NCBI GenBank assembly: GCA_963801605.1
Contig: CAWDFP010000006.1
Location: forward strand, 1,696,001-1,760,000
DNA: 64,000 nucleotides
Reading direction: 5' to 3'
DNA from: an uncultured candidate division Zixibacteria bacterium
GTDB taxonomy: Bacteria; Zixibacteria; MSB-5A5; UBA10806
Position 1 is the first letter of the stretch. Every line of letters begins with the position of its first letter. Shown piece after piece: positions 51,172-60,049 of the stretch. The translations under genes and the position numbers were made by a program. A model generated the notes under the pieces. It did not search any database. It had not been told where the DNA came from and worked only from the letters and a program-made list of their open reading frames with translations.

Positions 51172-54563
<3,392 letters not shown>

Positions 54564-54751: not shown

Positions 54752-54869
54752 TTCCGGTAGCGATAGCGCAGGGGAAACACCCGTTCCCATTCCGAACACG
54801 GCAGTTAAGCCCTGTAGCGCCGATGGTACTGCCTCTTTACGGGGGTGGGAGAGTAGGACGCCGCCGGGA
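54752..54869 (+). rRNA. rrf: 5S rRNA
   Basis: CCCATTCCGAACACGGCAGTTAAG, GATGGTACT, GGGAGAGTAGGAC and paired ends. Confidence 0.98.
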
Positions 54870-54878
54870 GTTTATTGG

Positions 54879-54914
54879 AAGCCCTCTTTCAGAAATGAAG
54901 AGGGCTTTTTGTTT
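54879..54914 (+). terminator. rRNA operon terminator
   Basis: AAGCCCTCTT-tcagaaatg-AAGAGGGCTT followed by TTTGTTT. Confidence 0.9.
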
Positions 54915-54940
54915 GACATTAATATGGTTGGTAATATAAT
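54913..54940 (+). promoter_or_regulatory. Sigma70-type promoter of the MNT-HEPN pair
   Basis: TTGACA-16-TATAAT overlapping the tail of the rRNA terminator. Confidence 0.7.
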
Positions 54941-54957
54941 ATTAATATGAGGTTAGA

Positions 54958-55210
54958 ATGATACCGTTAATAAAAGATAACAAGAATTCATTGATAGATC
55001 TTTGCCATAAATATTCGGTTAAACGGCTGTATGTGTTTGGCTCAGCGGCAAATGACAGCTTTGACCGTACCCAAAGCGATATAGATTTTATTGTTGAATT
55101 TGAGGAATCGCCTCCCGGAGAACACGCATTCCGTTATTTTGGGCTACTTTCTGCCTTGCAGGATCTTTTTTTCCCGTAAGATATTATCAAAGGTGCCGAT
55201 TTATGGATGA
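54958..55210 (+). pseudogene. Minimal nucleotidyltransferase (MntA-like antitoxin), frameshifted and apparently internally deleted
   Basis: LC.KY.V.RLYVFGS...F....SDIDF.VEF motif. Stops at 55179 as read. Removing one T from the T-run gives ...LQDLFSRKILSKVPIYG*, overlapping the HEPN start but lacking the usual 'VDLV...I.NP' segment. Confidence 0.7.
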
Positions 55211-55544
55211 TCGTACGAGGAAACATCTTTTTGATATAGTTGAGTCTTGTAAGCTTATTGAAAAATTTATAAGTAATAGGACGCTTAAAGATTATCAAAG
55301 CGATTCCATGCTGCGTTCCGCCGTAGAACGACAATTCCAGATAATAGGCGAAGCGCTCCAGCGGCTGATTCGAGAAAATCCCCAAAGTGCAAAATCGATC
55401 AGCGACCATCGCACTATTATCAATTTCAGAAATATTCTCGTTCATGGATACGACATGGTTGATAATGAAGTTGTATGGGGCGTAATTGAACGCGAATTGG
55501 CATTGCTCCATAGGGAAGCCGAGTCGTTATTACAGGGCAGTTAA
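55203..55544 (+). CDS. HepT-like (DUF86) HEPN ribonuclease toxin
   Basis: L.DI, AVERQFQIIGEA, intact RNILVHGY (Rx4HxY) and VD.EVVW. Confidence 0.92.
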   Translation: MDDRTRKHLFDIVESCKLIEKFISNRTLKDYQSDSMLRSAVERQFQIIGEALQRLIRENPQSAKSISDHRTIINFRNILVHGYDMVDNEVVWGVIERELALLHREAESLLQGS

Positions 55545-55645
55545 GCCCTGTAGCGCCGTGGTACTGTCGGGTTTCTCCGATCCGGGCCTCTTTACGGGGG
55601 TGGGAGAGGCCATTTGGCTCGAAACGATAGGACGCCGCCGGGAGT
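55536..55645 (+). repeat. Partial copy of the 3' ~60% of the 5S rRNA with two insertions
   Basis: GGCAGTTAAGCCCTGTAGCGCCG(-)TGGTACTG [20-nt insert] CCTCTTTACGGGGGTGGGAGAG [19-nt insert] TAGGACGCCGCCGGGAGT matches 54800-54871. Confidence 0.93.
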
Positions 55646-55650
55646 ATATG

Positions 55651-55684
55651 AATCGCCTCAATGCAAAACGGGGCGATTTTCTTT
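55651..55684 (+). terminator. Intrinsic terminator after the 5S-like copy
   Basis: AATCGCCTC-aatgcaaaac-GGGGCGATT followed by TTCTTT. Confidence 0.75.
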
Positions 55685-55757: not shown

Positions 55758-56297
55758 ATGGCCAGCTTTACTAAAGAACAAATAGAATATATTAATACAA
55801 TGCTTGACGAGCTCGGCAATGAAAAGGATCGAGGCCGTCCTATATAGGCGCGGAACTTGATAGATCTCTTGGAGACATCTTAATTGCGCACTTGCTCCCG
55901 GAAAAAGGAAAAACTAGTTCACCTCTTTTAGACAAGGATGGGCCTTTGGCACTCTCGCTTCAGGAATAGAAATTATCTATCGTCGTAGGGATTGATCAGC
56001 CCTTTGCTTCATCGAGAAGATTCATTTGTGAAAATAAGAAATCATTTTGCACATTCAAATGGCGCTGGAGTAGCAAAAAGTGAAAAATCGGCAATGGTGG
56101 ACTTATCCGAGCGTCTTGCATATTCCCAATGGATTTTGGAGGGTAATCCTTATTTTATTCAAGATGGCAATTGAGTAACATAGATGGCTATAACGATGAA
56201 ATACAGATTCATCTTTGTGCATGGCGCATCTTCATTGCTTGCTGGAAACATCGCGAATATTATTGAACAAGTAAAACATAAAATTCTATTGAGTTAG
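55758..56297 (+). pseudogene. Degraded MtlR-like HEPN-fold protein
   Basis: Fragments across frames read E.DRG / IGAELDRSLGDILIAHL / LLDKDGPL / IEIIYR / GLISP / KIRNHFAH. At least three or four frame breaks. Confidence 0.6.
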
Positions 56298-58887: not shown

Positions 58888-60049
58888 ATGGAGGCTATTT
58901 TTTACCATTTTCACCAAGCTATGGTGGGAATTTCGAAATTTAAATATCAATCTGCCGGATTACCAGTGATTATAGGTAGCGACAAATTCAGGCAATTACA
59001 TATCGCCATTTTTGCAAACGAGCGCTCAATTCATACTCGACGCTGGGTGTTGGGCCTGCGGGAATTGGGGCATCGAGTTGATCTAATTACGTTCTATAAA
59101 GATTACGACCATGATATCGGTGGAATTGATCTAGAAGCGACGAGTAAGGCGGGGTATCTGCTTAAAATCGGGAAGCTCAGGGAGATAATAAGCAGAGCTT
59201 CAGCCGGATATTTTTCATGCCCATTGTGCGTCCAGTTTCGGATTTTTGGCCAGTTTCGTAGATCATCCACGAAAGGTTCTTTCGGTTTGGGGGGAGGATA
59301 TAATAGCATTTCCGCGACGAAACCTCATAAATCAGAAAATAGTACAAAAATCATTATCAAGCGCTCATCAGATTACAGCAACCAGCTTGTTTCTTGAAAG
59401 AGTCGCGCGCTCCTTTCCAATTAAACTTCCTCCCATAACTGTTATACCGTTCGGAATAGATCTTAGGGTATTTTCCTACATAGAACGACAACCGCAGTCG
59501 GTAATCAAGATTGGTATTGCCAAGCACCTTGAGGAACAGTATGGTATCGACACTTTGATAAAATCATTCATGGTATTGTTGAAGAACAATAGCAACGTTA
59601 AATTGATTATTGCCGGTAGGGGAACCAAGGAAGATAAATATAAACGGCTGGCAAGCAGATTTGGGCTTGACACAAAAATTGAATTTTTGGGCGCTGTGGA
59701 ACATTCCAGGATGCCCGAATTTCTATGGTCGGTGGACATTGCCGCAATGCCGTCTAGATACGATGATGAAAGCTTTGGCGTTGCTGCCCTGGAAGCGTCA
59801 GCAACGGGTTTGCCTGTTGTAGCTACCAAAGTAGGCGGCGTACCCGAAGTTGTTATCGATGGTGTTACCGGCTTTATGGCGGAAAAGGAAAATGAGGAGC
59901 AGTTAGCGCAATATCTCGAAAGGCTAATCCAGGATTCCGACCTTCGCAAAAGGATGGGAATTGCGGGCCGAAAAATGGTGGAGGAACGATATCGCTGGGA
60001 AGATAACCTGGAATCGATGCAAAATCTATACTACGGAATGATGAAATGA
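58888..60049 (+). CDS. GT4 glycosyltransferase, one +1 indel at ~59190 (start uncertain)
   Basis: SIHT.RW, corrected ELQPDIFHAH.ASSFG, SVWG.D and ESFGVAALEASATGLPVVAT.VGG.PEVV. Confidence 0.85.

Follow-up and report, generated by a model that had tools for sequence, protein, structure and literature searches.

Integron arrays are built of one- or two-gene cassettes, are rich in toxin-antitoxin (TA) genes, and have boundaries that hug the stop codon. Additive flexible genomic islands of Alteromonas, as presented in PMC4898812, lie at tRNA and tmRNA genes and consist of variable cassettes, some of them with a partial repeat of the target downstream. Truncated 5S pseudogenes with insertions have been described behind rrf in Peptococcaceae and Pseudoalteromonas (PMC7812874), and the E. 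coli tRNA-linked repeats (TLRs) rrA, rrB and rrF are non-coding, 18–19-bp repeats conserved across Enterobacteriales (PMC8144298). The class I HepT/MntA modules described by Yao et al. (2020; PMC7641770) are composed of a PF01909 gene followed by a PF01934 gene, with an RX4HXY motif in the toxin and GS..DXD in the antitoxin.

We have analyzed a 64-kb stretch of DNA (the window) from an uncultured Zixibacteria genome (G000) in which an MNT-HEPN pair stands behind the 5S rRNA gene and is followed by a displaced piece of the 5S 3' end, together with the corresponding loci of its class. These loci resemble integrons in forming arrays of small TA-rich cassettes with boundaries at the stop codon, although their spacers align to host 5S ends and terminators rather than to attC, and the cassettes carry promoters; IntI (TIGR02249) was found in none of the 32 array genomes and in one of the 64 genomes tested, which is not an array genome. 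In common with the islands of PMC4898812, a hotspot gathers variable cassettes with TA and restriction-modification cargo, and relatives hold different cassette sets at the one fixed locus; the islands described there differ in that the target here is 5S, the units are 0.6–3 kb with one to three genes, and the 5S repeat spans the terminator and varies in length. None of the 44 tRNA and tmRNA genes in G000 has a nearby 3' fragment. The remnants of PMC7812874 are likewise 5S copies that are truncated and bear insertions, with a terminator ahead of each and sometimes more than one copy, but they are described there without genes between the copies, and the main text of that paper uses neither 'toxin' nor 'integrase'. 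The rrA, rrB and rrF elements also place a 5S 3'-end copy downstream of rrf and between terminators, although as described in PMC8144298 they are without protein cargo or turnover; the 5S fragments here are not conserved across relatives. A literature search among papers available without subscription found nothing relevant that treats 5S as a target for insertions or cassettes. 5S remnants without cargo are already published, and it is the lineage-wide cassette pattern that is notable, not the decayed copy in G000.

Layout of the cassette behind rrf

The rrn operon of the window reads 16S, tRNA-Ile, tRNA-Ala, 23S, 5S; it is the only one in the assembly, and G000 has one 16S and one 5S gene. 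The features downstream are listed in Table 1, and their order as given in an earlier note made from the sequence alone (5S, terminator, promoter, MNT, HEPN, part of 5S, terminator) is borne out by Rfam, folding, Pfam and alignment. A group I intron interrupts the 23S rRNA gene (window 53241–53518; Rfam RF00028, 64 bits) and contains no plus-strand ORF of 60 aa or more.

Table 1. Features at the end of the rrn operon (window coordinates)
Feature	Position	Strand	Evidence or remark
Intact 5S rRNA gene	54753..54869	+	Rfam RF00001, 94 bits
Hairpin T1, terminator-like, with U-tract	54879..54912	+	Fold z −3.42
Sigma-70-type promoter consensus, TTGACA-16-TATAAT	54913..54940	+	12/12 match
MNT antitoxin gene, broken	54958..55209	+	ORF 54958–55179, 73 aa; NTP_transf_2 PF01909, E 7.5e-9
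HEPN (HepT-like) predicted RNase toxin gene, 113 aa	55203..55544	+	PF01934, E 1.7e-20
Displaced, decayed 5S 3' fragment, nt 44–117 + 2 nt	55532..55645	+	Alignment to 5S
Insertion 1 in 5S fragment, 20 nt	55566..55585	+	Starts with left arm of a REP-like repeat family
Insertion 2 in 5S fragment, 19 nt	55609..55627	+	Alignment to 5S
Hairpin T2, terminator-like	55650..55684	+	Fold z −3.38

The 5S fragment exceeds chance similarity, being identical to the working gene at 77 of 79 aligned bases in perfect blocks of 23, 7, 23 and 18 nt, and no further 5S-like copy was found across the 3.06-Mb genome. The earlier note had taken it for a simple 3' part of 5S; the derivation from 5S holds, but a 1-nt deletion at nt 71 and both insertions had been missed. 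That the last HEPN codons and stop are supplied by 5S was correctly seen: they equal 5S nt 48–56, and the HEPN stop lies inside the fragment.

The first 12 nt of insertion 1 occur 26 times in G000, mostly within one palindromic family. REP-like palindromic repeats number about two dozen copies with variable inner hairpins, clustering at C6:1535000–1560000, and the genome has one Y1 transposase (C6:524629); insertions 1 and 2 loosely resemble the left and right arms of the REP-like family and flank 5S helix IV. Insertion 2 has the same position as an insertion in G003 and nearly that of one in G010, and further fragments with insertions near these 5S positions are present in G024, G053, G060 and G258. 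Short hairpin insertions recur after 5S nt ~68, ~78, ~87 and ~99–101 in decayed copies of different families (loci L033, L061, L107, L044, L078, L084, L104 and L136), and such recurrent sites suggest structure- or sequence-directed insertion.

An AT-rich palindrome, possibly an operator, overlaps the promoter, which aligns with that of a cassette in the metagenome locus L168. This locus is the best of 49 metagenome relatives, with a full 5S gene, an intact MNT and a HEPN that is 65% identical and ends on the same 5S-derived codons at an identical joint, although the 3' half of its 5S fragment has been lost. Neither T1 nor T2 was flagged by a consensus terminator scan. T1 matches T1 of L168 at 40 of 48 nt and T1 of G001 at 32 of 48, T2 matches the first terminators of G001 and G004 at 38 and 39 of 48, and T1 and T2 share 32 of 48 nt with each other. 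On these affinities T1 likely came in with the cassette, and T2 is likely to be the displaced rrn terminator of the host lineage. The cassette has a G+C content of 39% against 47% for the window, but the DNA 3' of T2 is similarly AT-rich (38% G+C), so that composition cannot delimit the cassette. A multi-stop pseudogene without a Pfam match follows T2 immediately (55758–56171), and a glycosyltransferase-like gene is broken into two frames at 58888–60049.

The pair shares with the class I HepT/MntA modules of PMC7641770 the adjacent PF01909 and PF01934 genes in that order, RX4HXY in the toxin (R76-X4-H81-X-Y83 by alignment) and GS..DXD in the antitoxin; it departs from those described there in an MNT spacer of X11 rather than X10, as in its intact relatives, and in a truncated antitoxin from which the third Asp is gone. 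About 18 codons are missing, including this catalytic Asp, which corresponds to MntA D71 and is present in all eight aligned intact relatives; the protein is without the DLV segment and its C-terminal third, although a C-terminal remnant survives in another frame up to 55209 in the DNA alignment to L168. The earlier note had missed that MNT is cut short at 73 aa, and the pair is probably defunct. Its picture of an RNase toxin placed where the rRNA operon ends was overstated as well, since the two are separated by a terminator and an independent promoter, and the antitoxin is broken. HEPN is the only HepT-like match in G000 and had no match in a sequence search of the PDB; it is not a new toxin family.

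The layout is genuine and not a mis-assembly. Among contigs from public short reads of other studies (runs X1–X4, of which X1 and X2 are probably one data set filed twice), a 232-nt contig of X3 covers 54803–55033 with the 5S-T1-MNT joint, and a 151-nt contig of X1/X2 covers 55532–55677 with both insertions and T2, albeit with one substitution and five extra bases. Within HEPN, an X1/X2 contig covers 55291–55441 and an X4 contig 55366–55516, and X1 and X4 match the gene exactly. No X1–X4 contig spans the HEPN-fragment joint with 31 nt or more on each flank, and the MNT lesion lies outside all of them; the single-base part of that lesion could be a consensus error, which is unlikely for the loss of ~54 nt. 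The assembly is 87% complete and some genes nearby are split, but with outside contigs holding both the upstream joint and the insertion-bearing fragment, and with the identical HEPN-5S joint in L168, a duplicate 5S created by assembly is scarcely credible.

Fragments and cargo across the class

Of 285 genomes of the class, 157 had a 5S match. From 119 genomes we took 120 loci, for the most part the top-scoring among the matches listed, each with at most 12 kb of downstream sequence; with the window this gives 121 loci, the kin among which are not independent, so that P values computed on them are overstated. BLAST placed same-strand copies of the locus's own 5S end at 30 of the 121, compared with one antisense and one in a reversed control. 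A stricter motif scan, from which G010 and G024 were omitted (as from the 1.5-kb rates below) as their 5S anchor is itself a fragment, found same-strand fragments at 28 of 119 class loci and antisense fragments at none, with 39 of 43 matches within 3 kb of rrf. The survey for TA pairs flanked by 5S fragments that the earlier note proposed has thus revealed a lineage-wide pattern. Within 1.5 kb, and dropping loci with less than 1 kb downstream, fragments occur at 24 of 116 loci in the Zixibacteria class and 3 of 34 in Hydrogenedentota, but at none in Acidobacteriota (0/28), Planctomycetota (0/28), Bacteroidota (0/24) or Spirochaetota (0/28); two Acidobacteriota have 5S copies further out, at 2.5 and 4 kb. 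Four of the 28 Spirochaetota loci (L381, L383, L361 and L366) have inverted matches to the 5S end or tail downstream of rrf, and in L381 and L383 an inverted terminator and 5S end copy follows closely. In G043 (L009) the 5' half of 5S is duplicated upstream of rrf with a palindromic insert, and contig C60 of G018 (L314) has a divergent, possibly contaminant rRNA region.

The left ends of the fragments range from 5S nt −53 to 104, and the right ends fall mostly at +39 to +53, at the U-tract that ends the terminator, although they lie ~190–240 nt further in G258 and G053. The fragment starts within 20 nt of the cargo stop codon in 11 of 19 units, including all nine TA/Fic units. MNT-HEPN pairs are bracketed by rrf and a fragment in G000, G001, G008, G278, G031, G035, G113 and G143, as is an MNT with a cut HEPN in G274. 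Other bracketed cargo includes Fic, RelB-ParE (RelBE), ImmA with a PIN-like gene and a nuclease, globin, BsuBI and BglII restriction-modification, and unknown and single genes, and many cargo ORFs have no Pfam match. G024, G060, G258, G259 and G008 carry arrays, and in G319 rrf is followed by three units, each ended by a 5S fragment and terminator, two of them with PIN-like TA genes (identified by inspection, without a Pfam match at E 1e-4); a HicA-HicB-like pair in G328 was likewise identified by inspection. Fragments without cargo occur in G003, G060, G053, G263 and G041.

MNT, with or without HEPN, is present at 15 of the 121 loci and always starts within 1.4 kb of the 5S anchor; with a profile built from rrf-adjacent proteins, none was found in the ~1.0 Mb lying beyond 1.5 kb of these anchors. 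A 5S fragment is present at 9 of 14 loci with MNT behind rrf and at 19 of 105 without. The MNT-HEPN pairs represent at least four lineages, with 26–43% identity between the three that aligned. The TA genes of G000 and same-genus G001 are only 33–34% identical, from which the captures would be independent.

The cargo-5S joint common to G000 and L168 has its counterparts in G001 and G008, which share one joint, and in G319, where the same joint occurs three times; by this measure cassette-fragment junctions are stable. In G000/L168 and in G001/G008 each fragment agrees with the 5S allele of its own host at one diagnostic site, a thin signal of two sites. The 5S gene of L168 differs from that of G000 at 8 positions and that of G001 at 7; L168 is therefore about as close to G000 as G001 is, and the shared cassette can be explained by vertical inheritance. 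With one genome sampled per species, no near-identical cassette was found in distant hosts, the best cross-genus identity being 71–73% at the amino acid level (G001/G008).

Filled and empty pairs occur among the relatives. An ImmA cassette stands directly behind the working 5S gene in G255, whereas in G258 and G259 the same cassette (82% identical as DNA) stands behind a decayed fragment that is itself preceded by a new unit; a second, similar pair is G003 and G006. The empty-site comparison that the earlier note called for thus succeeded elsewhere in the class and not for the window, where the 8.3 kb after T2 showed no synteny with the 121 loci and one weak match. Nor did the proposed look for excision between 54800 and 55536 reveal any: the short-read contigs hold no excised circle at this locus, and a joint from 55608 to 54860 in run X3 was an artefact, as the real 5S lay outside the reference used.

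Several further arrangements were observed. 5S 3' fragments with terminators lie on contigs away from rrf in G319 (L311, L312), G052 (L313) and G272 (L318); those of G319 have the cassette-tail joint of its array, and that of G052 adjoins a Thoeris ThsA-ThsB pair. REP-associated tyrosine transposase (RAYT) genes lie directly behind rrf at L052, L057 and L128 (G224, G234 and G123). In G255 (L046) a T-run lacking a hairpin separates the working 5S from the ImmA-PIN cassette, into which rRNA transcription may read.

Origin of the bracketed units

The 5S 3' end is likely a landing site for short cassettes that are added without an integrase of their own. A fuller account, in which homology-anchored capture adds units at this end and addictive cargo persists, we regard as evenly poised between right and wrong, and its recombination step is one that we infer. 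An incoming segment of 5S 3' part, terminator, promoter and cargo would pair with the chromosomal rrf, either through a single crossover from a circle or through two unlike joints, one homologous and the opposite one formed by microhomology inside 5S. The added cassette would push the old 5S end and its terminator downstream. The resulting direct repeat would make the cargo excisable, so that the cargo to persist would be addictive or protective (TA, restriction-modification), and deletions would shorten the spacer to the point where the cargo stop codon adjoins the fragment or is supplied by it. On this account the unit in G000 is old and decaying, its repeat broken by hairpin insertions that would suppress excision, after which the antitoxin could decay. 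Given minimal homology lengths, a perfect repeat of 23 nt or less would lower RecA-dependent excision; the insertions split the repeat into blocks of at most 23 nt, and excision would thereby be suppressed.

The polarity of G255 relative to G258 and G259, with the affinities of T1 and T2, favours a course in which units are added at rrf and the previous end is displaced, and the variable starts and extended right ends (G258, G053) are more in keeping with homology than with a fixed att core. ComEC and DprA were also found, which offers weak support as both are widespread. Against capture, 5 of the 14 rrf-adjacent MNT loci have no fragment; HEPN relatives adjoin 5S in only 1 of 72 cases (none of the 23 genome loci and one of the 49 from metagenomes); the cargo-free fragments indicate that the duplication can arise or persist without cargo; and the fragments of G319, G052 and G272 lie far from rrf. 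Capture also leaves unexplained an intact HEPN beside a broken MNT and behind a consensus promoter. HEPN may be tolerated because of poor translation after the loss of MNT coupling, or because of weak toxicity, and a wrong MNT consensus sequence may be an alternative account of this state. A reverse-transcription origin, as 5'-truncated copies ending at the terminator, was set aside, since nearly all copies are local and the cassette has its promoter with it.

The earlier note had a TA unit of ~740 bp entering by recombination in 5S, and likened the duplication to the attL and attR of integrative elements. Addition at the 5S 3' end with displacement of fragment and terminator is supported by the T1/T2 affinities and the filled and empty pairs; an attL/attR pair made by a site-specific integrase is not supported, as fragment lengths vary widely and no integrase lies beside rrf. 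A related possibility, that the units are relics or trans-mobilised satellites of integrase-driven elements using the 5S 3' end as attB, we consider unlikely. The geometry, an intact gene upstream and a displaced 3' fragment at the other end, is that of tRNA-targeted islands as described in PMC4898812, several fragments begin at nt 100–104 (G001, G008, G030, G113), and G000 has a decayed integrase beside tRNA-Leu. However, there is no integrase at the island end: within 12 kb of rrf at the 121 loci a tyrosine recombinase profile (three seeds and one match) detected only a XerC-like gene, at a distance of 11 kb, 118 rrf-proximal ORFs gave no recombinase name against NCBIfam at E 1e-12, and PF07508 had no match in G000, the genome covered by a family-level check for serine recombinases. 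Across 60 genomes, distant 5S 3' ends were not above a reversed-pattern control; of four extra matches inspected, one was real (G272), with no tyrosine recombinase there. Viral contigs gave no match to a strict 5S 3' pattern, and 12 matches in phage records were longer 5S pieces or terminator-only. The fragment lengths are too variable for a single att core, with starts scattered over the range given above, although erosion could blur a fixed site. The decayed tyrosine integrase of G000 lies beside secG and tRNA-Leu (C6:1424487–1433000), and a tRNA-Met 3' fragment with a tail lies at C6:1432817, far from its tRNA gene.

Duplication of the rrf 3' end and terminator in place, by tandem duplication or template switching, with a TA pair landing behind the first terminator by usual means and deletions trimming the second copy, would account for the cargo-free fragments, for near-full second 5S copies (G208, G169, G071, G153, G041) and for a repeat in G113 that is 61/61 identical including the terminator; the slot behind rrf also gathers IS, RAYT and methyltransferase genes without fragments. 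Even so, T1 and T2 are dissimilar and each has a different closest relative, the placement of ImmA-PIN in G255 and G258/G259 needs addition upstream of existing cargo, and fragments are commoner where MNT lies behind rrf, so that we judge this origin rather doubtful, if conceivable. Retention of the fragment for a role as a functional RNA, or as a signal for processing the TA transcript at its 3' end, much as for rrA, rrB and rrF, is very improbable. The E. coli TLRs behind 5S end in an 18–19-bp 5S 3' copy and are transcribed (PMC8144298), and the insertion-bearing fragment folds as a single long stem (z −1.7), but this fold is not significant, the 3' half of the fragment is gone in L168, and the sites of decay differ between genomes. 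Homology-anchored capture thus remains the reading that we carry forward.

Implications

Small TA modules have a wide and scattered distribution, for which no obvious vehicle is known. In about a quarter of the class genomes sampled, modules of this kind are gained at a single place, where an essential single-copy rRNA gene ends. With its ancestral sequence known, the displaced 5S piece serves as a ruler, on which joints, arrival order and later hairpin insertions can be read; it is also a caution for the annotation of 5S copy number. The pattern offers a testable route for the traffic of TA and defence genes, and a place to mine for new ones. As a tentative and somewhat unlikely extension, minimal circles of a 5S end, terminator, promoter and one to three defence or TA genes may excise from and re-enter the single rrn operon, with the 5S 3' end and terminator as the recombination module of an integrase-free system and conserved rRNA as an almost universal docking site; arrays like those of integrons would be built in this way in Zixibacteria, in Hydrogenedentota and in further uncultured lineages. 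If true, such a system would provide a route for stand-alone TA modules between taxa.
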